From an uncultured Candidatus Saccharibacteria bacterium (lineage in GTDB: Bacteria > Patescibacteriota > Minisyncoccia > Phycocordibacterales > UBA2100), in the NCBI GenBank assembly GCA_964623775.1, contig CAZUVH010000002.1:110454-174453 (forward strand): a stretch of 64,000 bases of DNA. Reading direction: 5' to 3'. Each line of letters begins with the position of its first letter. Position 1 is the first letter of the stretch. The position numbers and the translations under genes were made by a program. The notes below the pieces were generated by a model. The model made no database searches. It was not told the DNA's origin and was given only the letters and a program-made list of their open reading frames with translations. This document shows, piece after piece, positions 37,331-47,985 of the stretch.

Positions 37331-38590
37331 TTAGTTTAGTCGCTTGAGTGCCACGATGTACGCAGCATCTCGCAGCGAGACCTTGTGAAGCAGGGATTGA
37401 GCGTAGACTTCTGTGGTCGCCGATCGCATTTTTGTACGGAGCTTTTTGAACACCTCTTCTTTTTTCCATTTCTTCTTATTCATATTTTGGAACCATTCAA
37501 AATAGCTGACGATCACTCCCCCGGAATTTGCGAGCACATCGGGAATCACGGTGACGCCGTGCTTACGCAGAATCTCATCGGCTTCGCGTGTTGTCGGACC
37601 ATTGGCGAGCTCAAGTACGAATTTTGCTTTGATCTTGCCCGCGTTTACGTCGGTAATCGCATTCTCGAGTGCGGCAGGCACGACGATGTCGACCGCGAGC
37701 GTGAGGGCTTCGTCGGGAGAGATGTCTTGCCCGCCGAGCTTTTCCATATTGTTGAGATCACACACCGATCCGATGCAGTAGCATCCGGCGAGCTTGCCGC
37801 TTTTTTCTTTGCATTGCGCGACCGCTTCTAAATTCTCGATCCCATTGGGAATATAAATGCCGCCTTTTGAATCCGAGAGGGCGACGATCTTCATGCCGGC
37901 TTCTTGTGCGAATTTTGCGAAATAACTTCCTACATTTCCAAAACCCTGGATTGCGACGGTCATGCCCTTTGGCGACTTTCCCATTTTTTCAAGCAGTGCG
38001 AGCAGCGCGTAGAGACCACCGAGACCCGTCGCTTCCGGACGACCCAGGCTTCCGCCATCTTCGACGGATTTACCGGTGATGACAGCGGGGGCTTTTTTGC
38101 CGATCGCTTTTTCGTATTCGCTTTTGATCCAATGCATGATCTTGGCATTGGTGTTTACATCAGGCGCAGGCACGTCGAGTGTGGGGCCGATTACGGGCAC
38201 GAGTTTCCTCGCAAATTCGCGGGTGAGACGTTCGAGCTCCTTTTCGGAAAGTTCTTTCGGATTCACCGCGACACCGCCCTTACCGCCGCCAAATGGCACA
38301 TTGGCGATTGCATTTTTGATCGTCATCCAGAAAGCAAGTGCTTTCACTTCGTCCATGTCCACTTTCGGATGGTAGCGGAGGCCGCCTTTGTACGGACCAT
38401 TTGTATTATCGTGCTGCACGCGAAAACCACTGAAAACACGTACTGTGCCGTCGTCCATTTTGACGGGTACCGACACCTCTATCACCCGATCTGGATGCTC
38501 GAGCTTGGCGACAAGGAGAGGATCAAGATCGATCTCCTCTGCGGCAATCCGGAGCTGCTCCTTCGCCCGCTCCCAGGGGTTGTTGTTCAT
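37331..38590 (-). CDS. gdhA: NAD(P)-dependent glutamate dehydrogenase
   Basis: GGGKGG nucleotide/substrate motifs, full-length Glu/Leu/Phe/Val dehydrogenase family. Confidence 0.95.
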   Translation of the reverse strand: MNNNPWERAKEQLRIAAEEIDLDPLLVAKLEHPDRVIEVSVPVKMDDGTVRVFSGFRVQHDNTNGPYKGGLRYHPKVDMDEVKALAFWMTIKNAIANVPFGGGKGGVAVNPKELSEKELERLTREFARKLVPVIGPTLDVPAPDVNTNAKIMHWIKSEYEKAIGKKAPAVITGKSVEDGGSLGRPEATGLGGLYALLALLEKMGKSPKGMTVAIQGFGNVGSYFAKFAQEAGMKIVALSDSKGGIYIPNGIENLEAVAQCKEKSGKLAGCYCIGSVCDLNNMEKLGGQDISPDEALTLAVDIVVPAALENAITDVNAGKIKAKFVLELANGPTTREADEILRKHGVTVIPDVLANSGGVIVSYFEWFQNMNKKKWKKEEVFKKLRTKMRSATTEVYAQSLLHKVSLRDAAYIVALKRLN

Positions 38591-38681
38591 GGCGCCATAT
38601 TATCACCAAAAAGACTAGTTTACATATAGCGGACACAGGACATACTGCTTTCAGGGAATCAACCCTGTAGAGGAGAGTTCG

Positions 38682-39440
38682 ATGTCGAACACGACACTGC
38701 AACCGCCGCTCAAGTGGGACGCCCCCCTTGAAGCACACTCGCTTTGGTACAAGTACAAGACGGCCGTCTGGGGTCGCGAGACCCCGACTTCAGCGACCAT
38801 TCATAACACCATGCGGGTACTGAGAAGTATCCGTAATACTGGCCCGCTCGCGTACATCAGCGTTCCAATCACATCGGGCCAAAAATACTACGAACTGAAG
38901 CAGGTGGATCCCAACATGGATCCGAAGGAATTCATGACCGCCGTTATGCGCGCCAATTATCATATTGGCTGGGAACAGGTCGAAAAGGTGCAGGAGCGAA
39001 GGAAATGTAGCGTGCTCTACCCCGCCGATCTCATCCCCGCTCGTCAGAAATGGCAGCAGGAGGAATTCCAAGCGCTCTGGCTCAACATAATCGCGGAGAT
39101 GTGCACTGAAGTACACATGTGCCGCGGATGGAATCTGAGCAACGGTGGCATCGAAGAGCTTATTCACTCATTCCAACTTCAACTCGGTGTCCCCAAGACA
39201 ACGGCGAACTGTATTTTCTTCAATACAAAAGGTAACGAGTCGCAGGAGCGTGATCGAATGCGACGTATTGCAATCTTCGATCATGAAGGTCGGCCCGTCA
39301 CCATGGATAATGCGGCGCGAGAGATCGAAAAAGCCATCAACTGGCTTCGTAACAATCACTTTCCGACCGAACATCATACCAATTGTCTTGCGATCCTTTT
39401 GTGGACGCAGGATATGGTCAAAAAAGGATTCTATCAGTAA
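38682..39440 (+). CDS. hypothetical protein
   Basis: 252 aa; no secure family match (a YISVPITSG motif is loosely reminiscent of nucleoside 2-deoxyribosyltransferase-like folds). Confidence 0.45.
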   Translation: MSNTTLQPPLKWDAPLEAHSLWYKYKTAVWGRETPTSATIHNTMRVLRSIRNTGPLAYISVPITSGQKYYELKQVDPNMDPKEFMTAVMRANYHIGWEQVEKVQERRKCSVLYPADLIPARQKWQQEEFQALWLNIIAEMCTEVHMCRGWNLSNGGIEELIHSFQLQLGVPKTTANCIFFNTKGNESQERDRMRRIAIFDHEGRPVTMDNAAREIEKAINWLRNNHFPTEHHTNCLAILLWTQDMVKKGFYQ

Positions 39441-39450
39441 GCATCACAAA

Positions 39451-39480
39451 GCCCCGGACAAAAGTCCGGGGATTTTTTTA
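39451..39480 (+). terminator. intrinsic terminator (ccccggac-aaaa-gtccgggg + T7)
   Basis: Perfect 8-bp stem followed by gattttttt. Confidence 0.65.
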
Positions 39481-39672
39481 TACGGTGCCGCCTTCATCAT
39501 GCAACAGCAATGGGATGTCACAGGATCAGTGTGTTTTTGAGCATCATGATTTTTTAATGATTCAGCTCCACTTCACCGCCGTTTGTATATTGTCCCGCTC
39601 AATAGGTCGATAACAAATGATTATCAATCCCTCTTTATAAGCATATATAAAGCGTAATTCTTAAATAAATCC

Positions 39673-40743
39673 ATGAACACACTTAGAAAACTTGCATCGC
39701 TCTCTACTATCGGGGGCATGCTCTTGATCGGATCTCCGGCACTCGCGGATTCGACATACACGGTTACAAATGCAAATTCTGCCACTGTAACGAATTCGAT
39801 TTCTCTCTCAGCCAACACGGGCGGTAATTCTTCGATCGGCGGCGACGCCGGATACGGAGGCGGGGGCGGCTCTGTCACGACGTCTACTACTGACGACGAC
39901 ATGGCTGCTGCGGGCGGAAACGGGGGCAATGGAGGCAATGGAGGCGACGGCGGCTCTATCGAGACCGGCAGCGCCAACATCGAACTCGCATTGGTCAACG
40001 ACGTCAACAGCACTGAAACAACCATTGAAGACAACAGTGCAGAAGATCAGTACGACGTAACGCTCGACTACACACGCGAGACCGGCTCGTCTTCAAGCGA
40101 AGAGGGCGTCTCGATGACTCACGACGATGAGCAGAGCAGCTCATCCAACTCGGAAGAGCAGCAAAGCTCGTCATCTGATTCGGAATCGAGCTCGTTCAAC
40201 CAGCAATCAGCAAGCTTCGGCGAAGCATCTGCCGAGGATGGCGATTCGGGCGACAGCTCATGGAGCCAGTCGGTCGAAGACTTCGAAGAGACTTCTGCAA
40301 GCAACGAGAACCACGAGCAGCAGCAAAGCTCGAGCGCGAGCAACGATCAGCAAAGCTCGGAAGAGCATTCGTCTCTCGATGCGTGGGACAACGATGAGGA
40401 GGAGCATGACAACGTCAGTCTCCACTACACGAGGACCTACGCTGGCGGCAACACGACCGTAGCGGTGGTCAACGCAAGCTCGAACGCAGTCGTCAACGCA
40501 GCATCGATCGAGGCAGAGACGGGCAGCAACCACTCCGGCGGCGGAGCGGGCAATAACGGCGGCGAAGGCGGCGACGTCACCATGGCGATCTCCGGCTACA
40601 GCAACAACTCCGGCACCGGAGGCAATGGAGGCGACGGTGGCGAAGGTGGTATGGGCGGCGACGTCATGACGGGTTCTTCGAACCTCTCTGGCGGCATCGT
40701 CAATGTTGTCGGACGCGTGATTACACGCATCATCCGCAACTAG
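39673..40743 (+). CDS. secreted acidic low-complexity protein (Ser/Asp/Glu/Gln-rich core between Gly-Asn-rich repeat ends)
   Basis: Signal peptide (LLIGSPALA); N- and C-terminal segments are repeats of each other and of the N-terminal region of the next gene; central SSSSEE/QQSSS acidic stretch. Confidence 0.6.
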   Translation: MNTLRKLASLSTIGGMLLIGSPALADSTYTVTNANSATVTNSISLSANTGGNSSIGGDAGYGGGGGSVTTSTTDDDMAAAGGNGGNGGNGGDGGSIETGSANIELALVNDVNSTETTIEDNSAEDQYDVTLDYTRETGSSSSEEGVSMTHDDEQSSSSNSEEQQSSSSDSESSSFNQQSASFGEASAEDGDSGDSSWSQSVEDFEETSASNENHEQQQSSSASNDQQSSEEHSSLDAWDNDEEEHDNVSLHYTRTYAGGNTTVAVVNASSNAVVNAASIEAETGSNHSGGGAGNNGGEGGDVTMAISGYSNNSGTGGNGGDGGEGGMGGDVMTGSSNLSGGIVNVVGRVITRIIRN

Positions 40744-40878
40744 TTTTGTTCTTTGCTCGCGGCGTTCCTACAAACGCACGGGCTTCGAAAACAGGGATCC
40801 ATCCTGTTTTCGAACGAGCCCTCCCAAGCTGAGGTTTCGTCCGAAAACGGGATTGCTTAGAAGCTAATAAAGAAACGT

Positions 40879-43563
40879 ATGTCATCACAAACGTACAAAG
40901 CAGTGACTTCCTTAATCCTCCTCGCGAGCCTCTGGTCGCAGCTCGTTGTATTCCCTTTCGTGTATGCCGACGAAGTGCCTGTCGATACTCCCCAATCGAC
41001 AACTGCCCCTGAGGAGCCCGCATCTCCCTCCGTCACCTCAGAAAGCGGGGGTGAATCGTCGGAGAGTGCGACAAATACGCAAACGCATGAAGAGCAATCA
41101 TCCTCGAGCTCAGAGGCCAGCGAGTCCAACACTTCATCGTCACACTCCGTAGAAGCAACCATTTCGGAAAGTGAGGAGCACGACAACACAGATGTCCACG
41201 CGACCATTACTGGTGCGCTCGACATGGGAGAAACGGGATCTTCCACCGGGACTTTGGTAGACGACTTCCTTTCGGATATTCCTCTGTCGTCATCGACCGT
41301 TATGGAATCAATTTCGGACATCGCGAGCACGACTGTAAACGGTTTTCTCGGACTTGATTTTGTTTCCGGCTCGAGCTCGGCGACGACCTCGGGAGAGACC
41401 GAAAACGCATCTTCGACCTCGGGGACAGGTTCTGGATCTGGTAATCCTCCGGCGAGCTGCCCGGCATCGAGTGGCCCCTCCACGTCGACGAGCACGACTC
41501 CACAGATCTCAAATCCGACCATCCGCTCAGGTTCTGCGACCGTCCTCGCCAACGTCCTCAACCTCCTCAACACGACCTTTATCAATTCACCTGGCGGCAT
41601 TCTCTTTTCCAACTTTACCGACACCGCACCGACCATCGATTTGCGCGACGCATCGCTCCTCACCAGCTGCGATGAATCTATCTGCAACGGACAAGAGGGA
41701 TTGGAGGTCAATATCGTGGGAGACGCAACGATCGACAATGATCTCATACTCGACGCATCGAGCGGTCGCAATCTTGTCTCGGAGGGAGGCGCGGCGACGA
41801 GCAGCATCGAGACGGGCGACGCGATCGCGGGCTTGAATCTCGTCAACATAGCCAATACGACCTTCATTAATTCGCAGTACCTGATCGTCACACTGAACGC
41901 ATTCAGCGGGGTAAATGGCGACATCGTGTTTCCGAGTCTTCTCAATTTCTTTGCCTCAGGCGGCGACTCGTCACTCGCGAGCGGGTCAACGATCTCGAAT
42001 GCCGCGACGGTCCACAATGACGTCGCCGCTGCAGCCGACTCCGGGAGCAACACGACAGACGGCAGTGATATGTCGGTCATCTCGACCGGCACAGCCGATG
42101 CGCACACCAACGTCTTCAACCAAATCAATTCCATCCTGCCCGATAGTCAGATCTCAATCCTTTTCAGAATTTCAGGCACATGGAATGGCCAGATATTCGG
42201 CATGCCTTCCAACGTCTCCCAAGTACGCGGACCAGATGGGAGCGTCTATATCTTCGGCAATCCTGAAGAACAGGGGCACATCGACACACCCACTCCCCTT
42301 TTGAACAGCACGACGACAGCAGAGATCAACAACAACGTACTTCTTGACGCGCTCTCCGGCCAAAACGCGATCGAGAACGCCTCAACATCAGTGATTTCCA
42401 CAGGCAACGCAATCGCTTCGGCAAATATCGTCAACATCGCGAATCAAAACGTAATCGGTCGCAATTGGATTCTCGCCATCATCGACATTTTTGGCGATTT
42501 CACCGGCAATATCGCATTCGGCCGCCCTGATCTATGGGTCGGCGATCAAGTGGAGGCACCCGGTTTCGTACAAAACGGCAGCACGCTTACCTACAAAATC
42601 ACCGTCATCAACAACGGCGACTCTCCTGCAAACAACGTCATCGTGAGAGAATCCCCCGCACTTTCTCATCTCGATATTCTCGGCATGTCTCTCCCACAAG
42701 ATCCCTGTGTCACCGACGGAATCGCCTGGAATCTCGGGACACTGCTACCAGGAAATGCGGTCGAAATTACCTATACGGCAAAGGTAAAAAATACATCTCC
42801 AGGCGACCGTATCACCAACTCAACGACGGCGGCAGCGACGGAAACTGACAATAATACGGAAGACAATACCGATGGGACGACTGTGACCGCCACGGTGGTC
42901 GTGAGCGGTGGAGGTGGTGGCGGAGGTTCATGCTGCACCAACGCAGGCTCCGCATCATCAGGAGGCGGTATAATCTCGACCTCGACGCTCATGGTGGAGC
43001 GCCTTACAGCCAACATGACGCTTGAGGGGACGACGACAGCCTCGCAGCGCATTGTCGTCAAAAACACATCAAACTCCCCGATCAACAATGTTGTTTTCCA
43101 CGATTACCTACGTGATCCAACCACTCATCTCGTCCACGAGGAGCGATGGAATCTCGACACAATCGCGGCACACGAGGAAGTTACGATCCAGTATTCAATC
43201 GTGTTTGAGCCGGGGGCGATGAGCGGCACATATCGATTGAGTACGGTACTTGAAGGCAAAAATTACCCGACGACAATAGCGGGTAACGGAACCATAGTAC
43301 TCAAGGCGACACCGCAATTGCTCGCCGTCAGCGCAACGGAGATCCCGAGCGTGCGCGTCATTAATAGAGGCGCCGTACAAGACGGACCTATCCTCGTGAA
43401 AGCCACGAGCACGCTCCCGAAAATACCTCAGACTGCCGCCGTCGCCGCAGCGGATTCAGGAATAAGTATGAAATTCGTATATCTCATACTCTTCCTCCTG
43501 CTCTTTGCGGCAAGTTATGGAGCGTTGCGCGTACTCAATCCGGAGAAGGAGTCGGGCCGATAA
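40879..43563 (+). CDS. large secreted surface protein with DUF11 repeats and a C-terminal membrane anchor
   Basis: Signal peptide, acidic Ser-rich region, three copies of sTGnAiA.aNivNiaNt.fI motif, two DUF11-like repeats (LTYKITVINNGDSPANNVIV...), C-terminal IPQTA + hydrophobic helix + charged tail. Confidence 0.7.
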   Translation: MSSQTYKAVTSLILLASLWSQLVVFPFVYADEVPVDTPQSTTAPEEPASPSVTSESGGESSESATNTQTHEEQSSSSSEASESNTSSSHSVEATISESEEHDNTDVHATITGALDMGETGSSTGTLVDDFLSDIPLSSSTVMESISDIASTTVNGFLGLDFVSGSSSATTSGETENASSTSGTGSGSGNPPASCPASSGPSTSTSTTPQISNPTIRSGSATVLANVLNLLNTTFINSPGGILFSNFTDTAPTIDLRDASLLTSCDESICNGQEGLEVNIVGDATIDNDLILDASSGRNLVSEGGAATSSIETGDAIAGLNLVNIANTTFINSQYLIVTLNAFSGVNGDIVFPSLLNFFASGGDSSLASGSTISNAATVHNDVAAAADSGSNTTDGSDMSVISTGTADAHTNVFNQINSILPDSQISILFRISGTWNGQIFGMPSNVSQVRGPDGSVYIFGNPEEQGHIDTPTPLLNSTTTAEINNNVLLDALSGQNAIENASTSVISTGNAIASANIVNIANQNVIGRNWILAIIDIFGDFTGNIAFGRPDLWVGDQVEAPGFVQNGSTLTYKITVINNGDSPANNVIVRESPALSHLDILGMSLPQDPCVTDGIAWNLGTLLPGNAVEITYTAKVKNTSPGDRITNSTTAAATETDNNTEDNTDGTTVTATVVVSGGGGGGGSCCTNAGSASSGGGIISTSTLMVERLTANMTLEGTTTASQRIVVKNTSNSPINNVVFHDYLRDPTTHLVHEERWNLDTIAAHEEVTIQYSIVFEPGAMSGTYRLSTVLEGKNYPTTIAGNGTIVLKATPQLLAVSATEIPSVRVINRGAVQDGPILVKATSTLPKIPQTAAVAAADSGISMKFVYLILFLLLFAASYGALRVLNPEKESGR

Positions 43564-43573
43564 TCATCGGAGT

Positions 43574-44212
43574 CTATCGCGTCTTAAGGACGCCTGAGAC
43601 GACTTGAAATGATTTTTGTCGCTGCACCGTCGGCTTGGCACTCGTCGGCTCACCGGGATTGCGATCAAGATATACCATGGAAATATCGCCTGTGCCGATT
43701 CCGACATTGATCGGTTCGATGTTCTCGCCGATCAAGATAGCATTGGTGATGCGATATCCGTTGTTGTTCTTGATTGCAGCGACGAGATAAAAGAATGGGC
43801 TACTTTCGGGAGTCTGTTTGATGACGAGCGCAACGTCGTAAATCTTATCGTTATTTAGATCTCCGGTAGCCTCAAATGCAGGCAATATCTCGGTCTTGCC
43901 GCTTGCAGACTTACCCGTAGTGAGTGAGACCGAATTTCCTCCGAGTACGTATGTCGCATTCCTGTAATCCTTGAAGGTCGTCCCCGTGGCAGGCTTGGGG
44001 GCGGGTGGAGGCGGAGGAGTCGTCTTTTGTACCGTCGGCTGCGCCTTTGGCGTGGCGCTGTTGAGGTCATTCAATATCACCTGAGGATCTGTGTCACTAC
44101 TTTGCTGCGCATTCTCAGGCGCTTTTGTGCTACCGACCCACATAATGCCCAATACAACGACGACTGCGGCGATACCGATCTCAATTGTCCTGCGATTAAT
44201 GGTGATTTGCAT
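43574..44212 (-). CDS. membrane-anchored hypothetical protein with Pro-rich linker
   Basis: N-terminal TM, TTPPPPPAPKPATG linker, then soluble domain. Confidence 0.45.
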   Translation of the reverse strand: MQITINRRTIEIGIAAVVVVLGIMWVGSTKAPENAQQSSDTDPQVILNDLNSATPKAQPTVQKTTPPPPPAPKPATGTTFKDYRNATYVLGGNSVSLTTGKSASGKTEILPAFEATGDLNNDKIYDVALVIKQTPESSPFFYLVAAIKNNNGYRITNAILIGENIEPINVGIGTGDISMVYLDRNPGEPTSAKPTVQRQKSFQVVSGVLKTR

Positions 44213-44412
44213 ATACTTTCATAGTACCTAAGTTCATGAAGTTGACTATACACCTCGGTGGAAAATGAAGATGTGTATAGACAGACTCGCGAATGTAAAT
44301 ACGATGAAAGAGCATGTGGAAGTTTGTGTGCGTTGTGCTCGCCCCGTCAGTAGAAAATAGCATTGCGAAGCGAGTCGTTGCAGGTGGGTCCGACATCTAC
44401 ATCAAGTAGCAA

Positions 44413-45150
44413 ATGTTTGATTCATCTTCAAAATCTAAAGGCTTCGCAAAAGCAACGATGCTATTTTTCACTGTGGGGCTCGTCGGGATCTCGCTTGCAA
44501 TCGTGATCCCAGGAGTTATCGGGGGCGAAACTCTTCGCAGTAGTGCGGAGGCGTCCTCCCCCGTCCCCCGGTCGGTTTTTGCCGACAACTATATCTCGGT
44601 CTCGTCACCCGACGAACCCTTGCCGCCGAATACGGCGAACGACACAAATCCTGAAAGTGAGGTGGCGTCAGTACCCCTGGACCTCACCCTCGCCAAAATG
44701 CCTGTACGCGAGGACTCATATCCGATGCGCGTCATTATTCCTTCAATTAATCTCAACGACCCGATCGAGCCGATGGGTTTAAACAACCTAGGCGAGCTCG
44801 ATGTACCGGATGGCAAGACAAGTAACATCGGCTGGTGGAAAGATGGCCCCGTCCCTGGAGAAATCGGTAGTGCCGTTTTCGACGCGCACGTCTATGCCGC
44901 TTTTAAAAATCTAAAATACGTAAAGGTGGGCGACGATATACACGTACAGACTGCGGATGGAAGAACATTGCAATTTGTCGTGACAGATACCCGCGTATTC
45001 TCACTTGCCGAGATCACAAGTGAAATCCTCTTTGGCGATCACGGGGAAAGACGACTCAACCTCGTCACGTGCGCGGGCACATTCATGCGCGATCGCGGCA
45101 CGTACGATCACCGTCTCGTGGTCTTTGCAAAGCTCGTCAGTGACGAGTAG
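44413..45150 (+). CDS. sortase family transpeptidase
   Basis: N-terminal TM anchor, catalytic TLxTC signature (RLNLVTCAG) and conserved His (DAHVY). Confidence 0.8.
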   Translation: MFDSSSKSKGFAKATMLFFTVGLVGISLAIVIPGVIGGETLRSSAEASSPVPRSVFADNYISVSSPDEPLPPNTANDTNPESEVASVPLDLTLAKMPVREDSYPMRVIIPSINLNDPIEPMGLNNLGELDVPDGKTSNIGWWKDGPVPGEIGSAVFDAHVYAAFKNLKYVKVGDDIHVQTADGRTLQFVVTDTRVFSLAEITSEILFGDHGERRLNLVTCAGTFMRDRGTYDHRLVVFAKLVSDE

Positions 45151-45543
45151 TTATTTTGCCGGCTCCTCAAACTGCGCGCTGATTTTCTTAAGGACGTTTT
45201 CCATCGTGGTGTCACCTTTAACGATATAGTGGAACGTATTTTGGCGCATGGCTTCGTCGATACTCTCGACATCAGAGACATTCGTCAGGATCATCACCTT
45301 CACATTGGCGCCCCAGGAGTCTTTGCGCAGTTCAGCGATCATATCGAGACCGGACATCTCGGGCATGCGCAAATCGGCGAGGATGAGATCAGGGTGTTCG
45401 GCAAGCGCCATGCGCAAACCGTCTTTGCCATTGGTGGCTTTTGAGATGATATATCCTTCGTGTGCAAGCTTGTCGCCAAGTGCGAGCGCGGTCGGTAACT
45501 CGTCTTCAACGATAAGTATTTTTTTCTTTGAATTGGTATCCAT
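45151..45543 (-). CDS. response regulator, stand-alone receiver domain
   Basis: CheY-like fold: KKILIVEDE, DLILADLRMP, K in MILT..K region. Confidence 0.85.
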   Translation of the reverse strand: MDTNSKKKILIVEDELPTALALGDKLAHEGYIISKATNGKDGLRMALAEHPDLILADLRMPEMSGLDMIAELRKDSWGANVKVMILTNVSDVESIDEAMRQNTFHYIVKGDTTMENVLKKISAQFEEPAK

Positions 45544-45592
45544 GTACGCGAAAAGTAATAAATTATTAAAAATCGTCTATCAACTATACCAC

Positions 45593-46909
45593 CTAGCCCG
45601 ACTTCGCCCACGCATTGGGGAGCGTCACGTAGAAGGTCGTCCCCTTACCCTCCGTCGATTCGAAACTAATGCCTCCGTGCACTTTCTCGATGATCGTCTT
45701 GATGACATAGAGCCCGAGGCCCGTGCCATCGACGACTGTCTTTTGTGCGTTGTCTGCGCGATAGAGCTTCTCGAAAATATGCTCACGTGCCGCTTTTGGA
45801 ATACCGATACCGGAGTCGGCGACGCGGATGAAGGTCTTGCCGTCGTCGCGGCCGTGGGATATCTCGAGCTCGACCGCACCGCCAGGAAGCGTGTATTTGA
45901 TCGCGTTGGTGAGGAGATTTTGGAAAATCATGCGCAGCAGATTTTTGTCGACCCTGACGCGCGGCAATCCGGCTTCGTACGTCTCTTTGATGGTGATGTT
46001 GCGTTCACGCGCAGAGTGACGCAGGCCGTCCACCATGCCTTTCCCGAATTCGATAATATCGAGATCCTCTGGCCGTACATCGAGCACATTGAGTTCGATG
46101 CGGGAAACGTTCAAAAGATCGTTTACGATCGCGATCATTTGCCTATTAGTCTCGTGGATACTGTTGACGTAGGTCTGTTGCTCTGGAGTAAGTGTGCCCT
46201 TGTCTCCCGAGAGTAGACCCTCGGCAAGCCACCCCACCGCAGTGAGCGGCGTCTTCAATTGGTGCGATGCGAGCGAGACGAATTCGGTCTTCGCACGATC
46301 GACTTCCATCTCCTTGGTGACGTCGTGCGCGATGCCTTGGATTTTTTGGGGCTTCTTGTCCGGCCCGAGTACCGTCGCGCCCTGGATGCGCAGATAACGT
46401 ACCTGACCAGAAGGAAGAGTCACGCGAAACGCGGGTATAGAGAAATCACCCGGCTGCGTCTGTGCCTTCTGCCAAAATTCGGTCACCATCGACCGGTCCT
46501 TTTCGTGCGTCATCGCGATAACCCTTTCGATCGTTGGTGCGTTTTGTTTGGGCACCAATCCGAAAAGGATGAACATCTCTTCAGACCAAAAGGAAAATCC
46601 GTTTTGAAAATCCCAGGTGAAGCTCCCGAATTGGCCGAATTTTTCGGCCTCGTTCAGCTTTGCAGTCACGGTATTGAAGCCTGTCATCAAACGATCGAAG
46701 CGACGTGTGGCACGCCAGCTTCCTGTCAGAAAGAATAGAAATGCAACAATCGCCAGAAGTCCACTAACGAGGAGTATGAAGTGTGGATCTACTTTCAATG
46801 CGTATACGATGTTTTGCACGAGCGTGCCGATATTCATGTACATATATTGTAACAGGGGCAAGCCGCATGAAAAGAAAACCCCGACAATAGTCGGGGTTTG
46901 ATACTTCAA
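45593..46909 (-). CDS. sensor histidine kinase with PAS domain
   Basis: N-terminal TM, PAS-like region, H-box (SHQLKTPLTAV), N-box (NLLTNAIKYT), G1 (DSGIGIP), G2 (GTGLGL). Confidence 0.85.
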   Translation of the reverse strand: MKYQTPTIVGVFFSCGLPLLQYMYMNIGTLVQNIVYALKVDPHFILLVSGLLAIVAFLFFLTGSWRATRRFDRLMTGFNTVTAKLNEAEKFGQFGSFTWDFQNGFSFWSEEMFILFGLVPKQNAPTIERVIAMTHEKDRSMVTEFWQKAQTQPGDFSIPAFRVTLPSGQVRYLRIQGATVLGPDKKPQKIQGIAHDVTKEMEVDRAKTEFVSLASHQLKTPLTAVGWLAEGLLSGDKGTLTPEQQTYVNSIHETNRQMIAIVNDLLNVSRIELNVLDVRPEDLDIIEFGKGMVDGLRHSARERNITIKETYEAGLPRVRVDKNLLRMIFQNLLTNAIKYTLPGGAVELEISHGRDDGKTFIRVADSGIGIPKAAREHIFEKLYRADNAQKTVVDGTGLGLYVIKTIIEKVHGGISFESTEGKGTTFYVTLPNAWAKSG

Positions 46910-47985
46910 AGAAACTTTTCTGGTTCTACGTAGGGCAAACCGAATGCATCGGCTACTCCACGATGGGTCACGTGTCCGTCGCAGATATTGAGACCTTTTC
47001 TCAGTGCCTCATCATCGATAAGAGCCCAATCACACCCCTTGTCCGCGATCGCGGTGATGTACGGAAGCGTCGCGTTCGTGAGCGCGCGCGTCGATGTACG
47101 CGGCACAGCGCCGGGCATATTTGTCACGCCATAGTGAATGATGCCATCCACCTCGTATACGGGATTTTCATGCGTCGTCGGACGAATGGTCTCGACGCAC
47201 CCGCCCTGATCGATCGCGATATCGACGATCACCGAACCTTTGCGCATGAGACCGAGGTCTCGTTTGCGAATGATTTTTGGCGCTTTCGCGCCCGGGACGA
47301 GCACGGCACCGATCAAGAGATCGGCATGAGCGATGTGTTCGAGAATCGTCTCACGAGTCGAGGGAACTGCGTTGAACCCCATATTCTTGATGTAACCAAG
47401 ACGAGAGGGCGATGTATCGAGGACGGTCACGTTGGCTCCGAGCTGCGCAGCAGCAGTCGCGGCACTTATGCCTGCAGTACCACCGCCAATAATGACGACT
47501 GATGCCTGCGGAACGTCCAGCATCCTGTTCAAAAGCAGATCGAGGTAATGAGCACCCTCGCGGATGGCAACATAACCCGCAACTTGCGACATCGGTGTGA
47601 GGAGCGGCAGCTCACCGCTTGCGAGCTGAACTGTTTCGTACGCAATGCATGTGGCGTCAGATTTGAGCATTGCTTCGGTCAGGGCGTAATCGGCTGCAAG
47701 ATGGAAATAGGTGAAGATCACCTGACGCTTTTGTATCCGACGCCACTCTTCATGGAGAGGTTCTTTAACCTTCACAATGAGTTCTGATTCCGCCCATACG
47801 TGCTGCGATGCACATGCATGAGCACCGGCATGGTCGTAGTCGGTATTTGAAAAGCCGCTTCCTTCTCCCGCTTCATACGCCACGAACACCTCGTGTCCTC
47901 TCGATACAAGTGCCGATGCGCCCGCAGGAGTAAGGGCGACGCGACGTTCGGAATTCTTGATTTCCTTGGGTACGCCTATGCGCAT
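46906..47985 (-). CDS. ald: alanine dehydrogenase
   Basis: MRIGVPKEIKNSERRVALTP N-terminus and GGGTAG Rossmann motif. Confidence 0.9.
   Translation of the reverse strand: MRIGVPKEIKNSERRVALTPAGASALVSRGHEVFVAYEAGEGSGFSNTDYDHAGAHACASQHVWAESELIVKVKEPLHEEWRRIQKRQVIFTYFHLAADYALTEAMLKSDATCIAYETVQLASGELPLLTPMSQVAGYVAIREGAHYLDLLLNRMLDVPQASVVIIGGGTAGISAATAAAQLGANVTVLDTSPSRLGYIKNMGFNAVPSTRETILEHIAHADLLIGAVLVPGAKAPKIIRKRDLGLMRKGSVIVDIAIDQGGCVETIRPTTHENPVYEVDGIIHYGVTNMPGAVPRTSTRALTNATLPYITAIADKGCDWALIDDEALRKGLNICDGHVTHRGVADAFGLPYVEPEKFL

Follow-up and report, generated by a model that had tools for sequence, protein, structure and literature searches.

A gene for a large surface protein and a gene for a sortase lie close together in a 64-kb stretch of contig CAZUVH010000002.1, which is called the window here and in whose numbering all coordinates are given. 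The surface protein, of 894 amino acids (aa), is encoded by an open reading frame (ORF) at 40879..43563 on the plus strand, and the sortase by an ORF at 44413..45150 on the same strand. Both proteins have homologues in Parcubacteria/Paceibacterota (Kaiserbacteria, Adlerbacteria, Taylorbacteria, and relatives), and the surface protein belongs to a Parcubacteria-wide family with 2,909 representatives at E<=1e-30. A first-pass annotation of the sequence described the two as a dedicated sortase-substrate pair of unusual motif specificity, in which the pentapeptide IPQTA near the end of the surface protein would serve as the sorting signal.

The C-terminus of the surface protein consists of STLPKIPQTAAVAAADSGISMK-FVYLILFLLLFAASYGAL-RVLNPEKESGR. 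The candidate sortase signal IPQTA (aa 849-853; 43423..43437, plus strand) is followed after 12 residues by a hydrophobic helix (aa 866-883; 43474..43527, plus strand; hydropathy 2.4-2.7) and by the charged cytoplasmic tail RVLNPEKESGR (aa 884-894; 43528..43560, plus strand), in which R884, K890, and R894 make the extreme C-terminus positively charged. In an AlphaFold2 (AF2) model built with 19 homologues (mean predicted local distance difference test (pLDDT) score 65), the terminal helix spans aa 863-885, and IPQTA lies inside a predicted disordered linker (aa 813-865) directly before it. The tripartite layout that had been proposed is therefore borne out by the ORF and by the model, with a helix of 18 aa rather than roughly 21 aa. 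Set against LPXTG, IPQTA has P and T, with Ala at the position of the Gly, and its orthologues have LVMTA and LKLTA there. The helix core, LFLLLFA.SY, is identical among orthologues of 61-75% identity, and GALR follows it in the orthologues P0002 and P0003, not in that of locus L112.

The combination of P-x-T-[GA], a C-terminal helix, and a basic tail is rare. A scan of 4,590 ORFs of at least 80 aa, taken from the window and from 1.28 Mb flanking related sortase or DUF11-family genes, recovered only the 894-aa protein, a set of sortase-adjacent proteins with a PNTG motif, and two short ORFs with signal-like tails (SPVTA in L016 and FPETA in L040), which were taken as spurious. No other reading frame of the window was found to have this combination.

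The sortase has 245 aa, or 230 aa if translation starts at 44458; its sole recorded gene call is the 230-aa form starting at M16 (P0040; NCBI, Logan). It matches the Pfam Sortase family PF04203 with 68.2 bits against a gathering threshold of 26.6 (E=7e-19). Its N-terminal membrane helix is joined to the catalytic domain (aa 100-245) by a linker of ~60 aa. The catalytic residues H159 (44887..44889), C220 (45070..45072), and R234 (45112..45114), all on the plus strand, are invariant in an alignment of 28 homologues. Since C220 lies in LNLVTCAG and the gap from the surface-protein gene to the sortase gene is 849 nt, a sortase with a TLxTC-type motif (LNLVTC) does stand where the first-pass annotation had placed it, ~850 bp downstream. 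The gene for a small membrane protein that was said to separate the two is also present (212 aa; 43574..44212), with the correction that it is encoded on the minus strand, running towards the surface-protein gene (convergent) and away from the sortase gene (divergent). Therefore, the sortase forms a separate transcription unit and is not co-transcribed with the surface-protein gene.

Among the NCBIfam models, class_F_sortase (NF033748) fits the enzyme best, at 113.1 bits, which does not reach the cutoff of 166. The same class is the best one for all 28 aligned relatives, none of which reaches the cutoff either (best E among them ~4e-41), while the class D model gives the window sortase only 22 bits. 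The nearest PDB match is a class C sortase (E=2e-5), and no close solved structure was found. The physiological roles of class F enzymes are themselves still unknown (PMC13251363). In a tree of the relatives, two paralogue clades are apparent, and a second sortase lies 0.5-3 kb from the first in L022, L029, L030, L031, L037, and L051. Clade II enzymes are 33-40% identical to the window sortase, sit in substrate-then-sortase operons, and are marked by the insertion DNGLGL(A/D)GVFKHL after the catalytic His. Clade I enzymes, including the window sortase, are divergent from the substrate-sortase operon or convergent with a PNTG gene of their own. As to its classification, the window sortase is thus nearest to class F, below the cutoff of that class, and belongs to clade I; its best match within the genome collection is 63% identical.

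A signal for this group of sortases can be read from the adjacent genes. In six-frame scans of 80 genomic loci collected around relatives of the sortase, 24 carried an ORF ending in T-T-P-G-[AVIT]-P-N-T-G-A-G-G-D-x-x-x-N, a helix, and YLxR. The distance from this PNTG-tailed ORF to the matched sortase was at most 703 bp in 22 of the 24 loci and at most 340 bp in 21. A profile of 18 PNTG tails retrieved 46 more P-x-T-G mini-proteins of 60-86 aa from public data, 40 with PNTG and the rest with PATG, PETG, PSTG, PDTG, or PTTG. Across 64 such signals P, T, and G are invariant. We infer that the signal of the clade would be [AVIT]-P-N-T-G-x-G-G, followed after 8-9 residues by a helix with YLxR at its end. 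Most of the PNTG-tailed ORFs are tiny and Thr-rich, and a few are larger. One of the larger ones is an ice-binding-like protein of 420 aa (L079 1847-3109, plus strand; PF11999, E=1.4e-59), which has the signal APNTGEGG and lies 225 bp from a sortase.

The tiny precursors that flank Parcubacteria sortases (60-160 aa) share a simple plan: a signal peptide, a Thr-rich stretch of ~10-30 residues, PG[AVIT]PNTGAGGD, a helix, and YLxR. Examples are L017 10519-10815 (minus strand), L030 9320-9769 (minus), L038 2637-3062 (minus), and L075 9497-9781 (plus), as well as P0232-P0277. After both cleavages such a precursor would leave just a short Thr-rich peptide, and no curated model names these mini-proteins.

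Measured against this signal, the window tail is at background. A full-tail model of 18 PNTG tails gave it 1.0 bit, compared with at least 59.6 bits for true PNTG signals, and a core-motif model of 14 columns gave it -1.3 bits, compared with at least 18.7 bits. When the 64-aa window tail was searched against curated sorting-signal models (TIGR01167, PF00746, and other CTERM models), there were zero matches at E<=10, whereas PNTG tails of the sortase clade reached 12.9-19.4 bits on LPXTG models (19.4 on Gram_pos_anchor), which is nearly at the thresholds. The orthologues P0002 and P0003 scored somewhat higher on the core model, at 5.4 and 3.2 bits (22nd and 36th of 4,629 tails); their PGIPQTAA may be compared with the cognate PG[VI]PNTGA.

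The pentapeptide is not stable among the closest relatives of the surface protein. IPQTA recurs in P0002 and P0003; in L112, whose orthologue is 61% identical to the window protein, the motif position is occupied by ATSTPPALVMTAAAAV (LVMTA), and in P0004 (locus L001) the region is LPNLKLTAAAAV (LKLTA). A sortase is adjacent in L112 and has been retained next door in L001. T-A-A is the sole fixed part of the motif in the sortase-adjacent window clade, while the Pro and the polar residue vary. Since LVMTA and LKLTA occur in L112 and P0004, the Pro is not constrained.

More distant relatives carry motifs nearer to the canonical form. In a neighbour-joining tree of 147 family proteins, the window protein falls in a sub-branch with P0002-4, P0010, L087, P0009, P0146, P0007, P0117, and P0134, and P0135 and P0137 stand beside it. 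The sister motifs include TPRIPNTGV in P0010 (plus a separate AIAQTAAAG), LPKIPNTAG in L087 (plus a separate ALTAAVG), LPLIPNAGQ in P0007, QPRIPNAGG in P0146, TPKVPNTGS in P0168, and IPPTG in P0137, which is placed 8 residues before the helix. In most sisters there is also a separate x[QL]TAAA element closer to the helix. The window motif continues directly into TAAVAAADSG, and it looks as if the spacer of ~20 residues between the PNTG motif and the TAAA element has been lost in the window protein. One MAFFT alignment had matched the window RVINRG with P0010 RIPNTG, as if the former were a decayed form of the latter; this reading was dropped because alignment A3 and the LPKIPNTAG of L087 place the homology at LPKIPQTA.

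A juxtamembrane element of the form Phi-x-x-T-A-A-(A/V) aligns with both the [IV]PN[TA][GA] motif and the x[QL]TAAA element of the sisters. Both elements appear to have merged in the window clade, in which Pro and Asn would then be free to drift. This comparison suggests that IPQTA may not be a new sorting code, and that it may instead be the local spelling of the juxtamembrane element. The sortase itself gives no sign of a change in specificity. It is not on a divergent or long branch, sortases with a PNTG gene beside them occur throughout the sortase tree, and between 4 DUF11-linked and 21 PNTG-linked sortases zero conserved columns have changed, except for one trivial C-terminal column. An unchanged recognition surface of the sortase together with a motif in which the Pro and Gly invariant in the cognate signal have been lost points to relaxation and not to a co-evolved new specificity.

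Linkage between the surface-protein family and sortase genes was assessed by counting sortase-system genes within 5 kb, namely a sortase, a PNTG mini-protein, a SpaA_2-like protein with an IPNTG tail, or another PNTG protein; comparison loci had at least 4 kb of flank. All eight loci of the sub-branch or with a motif had such a gene, compared with none of 11 other family loci (Fisher's test ~1e-5, or ~8e-5 with ~6 independent lineages). The neighbours are a sortase in the window, the P0002 contig, and L001; two sortases and a mini-protein in L029; a mini-protein in L084; a SpaA_2-like protein in L085 and L093; and a 373-aa PNTG protein in L087. Therefore, the sub-branch is really connected to the sortase system, and nothing else speaks as strongly for the first-pass annotation. 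Most members of the surface-protein family lack a nearby sortase. None was found within 10 kb in ~22 unbiased metagenomic family loci, and L029 is the only one of the 80 sortase loci with a family member nearby. An early linkage figure of 6 out of 8 family loci was set aside; it was biased to close relatives, and the unbiased metagenome sample confines the link to one sub-branch.

Two readings of the locus compete most directly. According to the preferred one, to which we give about an even chance, the helix is what holds the 894-aa protein, IPQTA descends from a PNTG-type motif by relaxation and fusion, and the main substrates of the sortase are PNTG proteins encoded elsewhere. IPQTA would then probably be cleaved poorly or not at all. 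According to the other, which is possible and rather doubtful, the sortase cleaves between T852 and A853 and joins the protein to peptidoglycan or to another protein through a relaxed xPxTA or Phi-x-x-T-A motif. Such cleavage would agree with the tripartite layout in a disordered linker, with the synteny kept in the P0002 contig, L001, L112, and, as far as it reaches, the P0003 contig, with the linkage of the sub-branch, with sister motifs such as IPNTG, IPNTA, IPNAG, or IPPTG, with the resemblance of P0002 and P0003 to the cognate signal, and with the Thr-Ala that is fixed in the clade. However, the Pro is gone in L112 and P0004 in spite of an adjacent sortase, P, T, and G are invariant in the 64 cognate signals while the window tail is at background, the sortase gives no hint of altered specificity, and the two genes are not one operon.

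Several observations weigh against the preferred reading, according to which the motif is relaxed. All five syntenic orthologues keep the Thr, and the sister proteins have near-canonical motifs (IPNTG, IPNTA, IPNAG, and IPPTG). LPKIPNTAG of L087 and LPKIPQTAA of the window match at 7 of 9 positions, at an overall identity of 38%. At 12 residues, the distance from IPQTA to the helix is not far from the 8-9 residues of true PNTG signals. The Thr-Ala scissile pair has a counterpart in the class D sortase signal LPNTA (PMC8225981). Added to these are the linkage of the sub-branch to sortase-system genes (8/8 compared with 0/11) and the result that no PNTG protein from the window's own genome was found, the 64-kb window being what was searched. 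The profile search of public data likewise returned no PNTG protein from the window's own contig, which is uninformative.

Taken together, the proposal of a dedicated sortase-substrate pair of unusual motif specificity is borne out only in part. The layout, the conserved synteny, the linkage, and the near-canonical sisters speak for it; against it, the Pro drifts, the inferred clade signal is PNTG, the tail is at background, the sortase is unchanged, and most family members have no sortase nearby. A further possibility is that a proline-independent signal, Phi-x-x-T|A-A, lets the adjacent class-F-like sortase anchor the whole window clade (IPQTA, LVMTA, and LKLTA), which seems unlikely. If true, this would be a new mode of sortase recognition, derived from the Parcubacteria [IV]PNTG motif fused with the TAAA element.

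In the mechanism that goes with the preferred reading, the locus would combine a widespread Parcubacteria two-gene surface module with an opposite-strand membrane protein and an ordinary sortase of the class-F-nearest clade. The 894-aa protein would be exported by the Sec route, lose its N-terminal signal peptide, and stay tethered by its C-terminal helix, while the sortase would mainly act on PNTG-type proteins encoded elsewhere in the genome. The adjacency of the genes may be a leftover of an older, real link between the sub-branch of the family and the sortase system.

A second element in the tails of the family bears on another fate of the protein. The pattern [FL][LTS]P[PQEN][IVT]-A-x-A-[AS][ED] occurs in 44 of 112 helix-ended family representatives, at a median of 17 residues before the helix, compared with ~1/112 in shuffled sequences and 2/740 in internal segments; carriers include the tails of P0016, P0106, P0149, P0136, P0141, P0158, P0159, P0161, P0130, P0194, P0100, and others. 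A model of the element also lands on the family's own N-terminal signal-peptide cleavage sites (..AYA|EE, ..AFA|DE). It was not seen in any unrelated ORF in 1.34 Mb and is therefore not a modular signal. In its appearance the element resembles a signal-peptidase-I site, and further upstream another element, x-V-L-G-[AT]-S-T, recurs in family tails.

From these observations it could be argued that a signal-peptidase-type protease following the A-x-A rule processes the protein, or sheds its ectodomain, at the juxtamembrane element; the ectodomain would then be released with no role of the sortase. We regard this as distinctly unlikely. The enrichment over shuffled and internal sequences and the hits on the signal-peptide sites speak for it, as does the best match of the model in the window tail, which falls exactly on KIPQTAAVAAAD. 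Yet this match reaches only -0.9 bits, the direction of the chain relative to the membrane is opposite to that of a normal signal peptide, the element is absent from unrelated proteins, and we know of no experimental precedent for signal-peptidase-type shedding at such a juxtamembrane element. Candidate A-x-A sites in the window tail are A854-V855-A856|A857 and A856-A857-A858|D859.

The rest of the surface protein is arranged, from the N-terminus, as a signal peptide, a disordered S/T/E-rich region, beta-rich repeats, a CLIPPER domain, a Gly/Cys linker, an Ig-like domain, a disordered linker, and the terminal helix. The signal peptide as read from the sequence comprises aa 1-30 (40879..40968, plus strand), with probable cleavage after VYA (..FPFVYA|DE), and contains an AF2 helix at aa 3-23. 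Across the family the N-termini end in A-x-A followed by D or E. After the region predicted to be disordered (aa 24-211 in the AF2 model), a beta-rich domain (aa 212-550; 41512..42528, plus strand; pLDDT mostly 70-95) consists of four ..SG.N....I.TG.A.A..N..N.AN.. repeats, in which many Asn and Gly are invariant in the alignment. It has no Pfam family. The top matches of a whole-model Foldseek search against the PDB were multi-domain beta-sandwich proteins with TM-scores below 0.15 of the query; therefore, no fold was assigned to this N-terminal domain.

The DUF11 identity proposed for the 894-aa protein holds. The domain at aa 554-669 (42538..42885, plus strand) matches PF01345 with 52.7 bits against a gathering threshold of 24.6 (E=6.6e-14) and TIGR01451 (E=5.9e-10). 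The DUF11 family has been renamed CLIPPER (PMC12617251) and is CnaA-like, and many of its domains lack the residues for the Lys-Asn isopeptide bond and its catalytic Asp (PMC12617251). A second Ig-like beta-sandwich at aa 704-808 (42988..43302, plus strand) is predicted from AF2 strands (pLDDT ~80-86). The top PDB matches include transglutaminase, RbmA, and WxLIP, which are paired beta-sandwich proteins, and in the model these matches probably come from the CLIPPER domain and the second Ig-like domain. Between the two domains, a Gly-rich linker (aa 676-702, ~42906..42990) holds paired cysteines (GGGGGGGSCCTNAGS); two Cys at the matching linker position are also present in P0002 (GSGCGSC) and P0003 (GGCFCA).

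In L085 (4986-6038, plus strand) and L093 (11898-13058, plus strand), a gene for a SpaA_2-like protein, which has a pilin-type fold and a canonical IPNTG tail, is directly downstream of the family gene. This arrangement hints that such proteins may be a sortase-dependent third component of the module. Going further, the CLIPPER protein might be a membrane-anchored base or acceptor to which the sortase joins PNTG-tailed proteins in a pilus-like manner. The SpaA_2-like neighbours and the CnaA-like isopeptide-type nature of CLIPPER, typical of pilins and adhesins, are consistent with this idea. However, a third gene of this kind is absent from the window, a pilin-motif lysine was not identified, and hardly any mature part is left in the mini PNTG proteins; the scheme is conjecture and is considered highly improbable.

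Directly upstream of the surface-protein gene is a gene for a secreted partner of 356 aa (39673..40743, plus strand), which has a signal peptide and no C-terminal anchor. It has zero matches in Pfam and NCBIfam, and neither it nor the 894-aa protein has a match in PHROGs. The two share an N..V...A.SG.N....I.TG.A repeat (BLASTP E=1e-4). Every locus examined with gene calls or ORFs has a gene immediately 5' of the family gene, coding for 332-395 aa (in L029, 450 aa), and tblastn confirms that it is homologous to the window partner in ~15 of them (L001, L029, and a dozen or so metagenome loci). Examples are L001 8881-9885, L029 6309-7661, and L112 1436-2449. In three sequences the partner C-terminus contains G-R-x-(I/V)-T-R-(I/V)-(I/V), with an RN end in two of them. 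The partner and the CLIPPER protein look like a two-component surface structure.

The order of partner, DUF11 protein, 212-aa gene, and sortase recurs in L001, L112, and the P0002 contig; the P0003 contig shows it up to the point where the contig ends. Synteny between L112 (1-9534) and the window (37331..47985) extends over more than 9 kb, with glutamate dehydrogenase, the partner, the CLIPPER protein, the small membrane protein (223 aa in L112), the sortase, a response regulator, a histidine kinase, and alanine dehydrogenase in the same order. An extra ORF of 252 aa without a family (38682..39440) is present in the window and not in L112; it is followed by a clean hairpin terminator at 39452..39471, the one exception in promoter and terminator scans of the window that otherwise did not rise above shuffled expectation. 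In the 212-aa protein, a Pro-rich linker joins the N-terminal helix to a conserved domain of ~130 aa at the C-terminus; Pfam and NCBIfam searches gave no family for this protein and PHROGs gave two weak matches (E~1e-3). Homologues of it are found at the equivalent position in L001, L112, and the P0002 contig, and at varying distances in L043, L049, L053, L071, and L073 (~1.2 kb from the sortase in L073).

To our knowledge, the substrates and motifs of sortases from the Candidate Phyla Radiation (CPR) have never been tested, and a literature search found no study of their specificity. Sortases are present in more than half of CPR genomes (PMC6744442). The PG[AVIT]PNTG-GG motif on the mini-proteins gives one large clade of Parcubacteria sortases a cognate signal that can be tested, and the locus shows gain, relaxation, and loss of sorting motifs within a large surface-protein family. 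If IPQTA, LVMTA, and LKLTA are still sorted, a proline-independent sortase signal would be available, which could be of use in protein ligation chemistry. Otherwise, the locus is a surface-gene cluster of the ordinary kind and illustrates that motif-plus-helix look-alikes beside sortases can mislead. The by-products of the analysis, that is, the PNTG mini-protein signal and the family-wide A-x-A element, are maybe worth more than the original finding.

Among known sorting signals, IPQTA shares the Thr-Ala scissile pair with the class D signal LPNTA (Bacillus anthracis SrtC) and the P-Q-T core with the SrtB signal NPQTN, and in both of these the motif is followed by a helix and then a basic tail, as in the 894-aa protein. 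Unlike them, the window motif has Ile at position 1 and its Pro is not conserved in orthologues. The PNTG tails of the clade come close to the thresholds of the LPXTG models TIGR01167 and PF00746, which leave the window tail unmatched. The His-Cys-Arg triad and the N-terminal membrane anchor of the window sortase are those of class F sortases (NF033748), and some of its relatives are labelled 'class F sortase' by NCBI. In contrast to class F, the window clade scores below the cutoff, is confined to Parcubacteria, and would use [AVIT]PNTG-GG and not LPXTG, the signal reportedly used by Cutibacterium acnes SrtF.

The 894-aa protein itself may be compared with CLIPPER/DUF11 fibrillar adhesins (PMC12617251) and with the pilus tip adhesins of Gram-positive bacteria. 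In contrast to these adhesins, most relatives in its family lack a sortase motif, its N-terminal repeat domain has no family assignment, and the gene for a secreted partner is always present; moreover, it has a single CLIPPER domain, whereas CLIPPER adhesins have tandem repeats. What it has in common with them is a large size, secretion, an adhesin-like N-terminal domain, CnaA-like stalk domains, and a C-terminal anchor, and the SpaA_2-like neighbour in its sister loci is a further likeness to pilus and CLIPPER adhesin systems.

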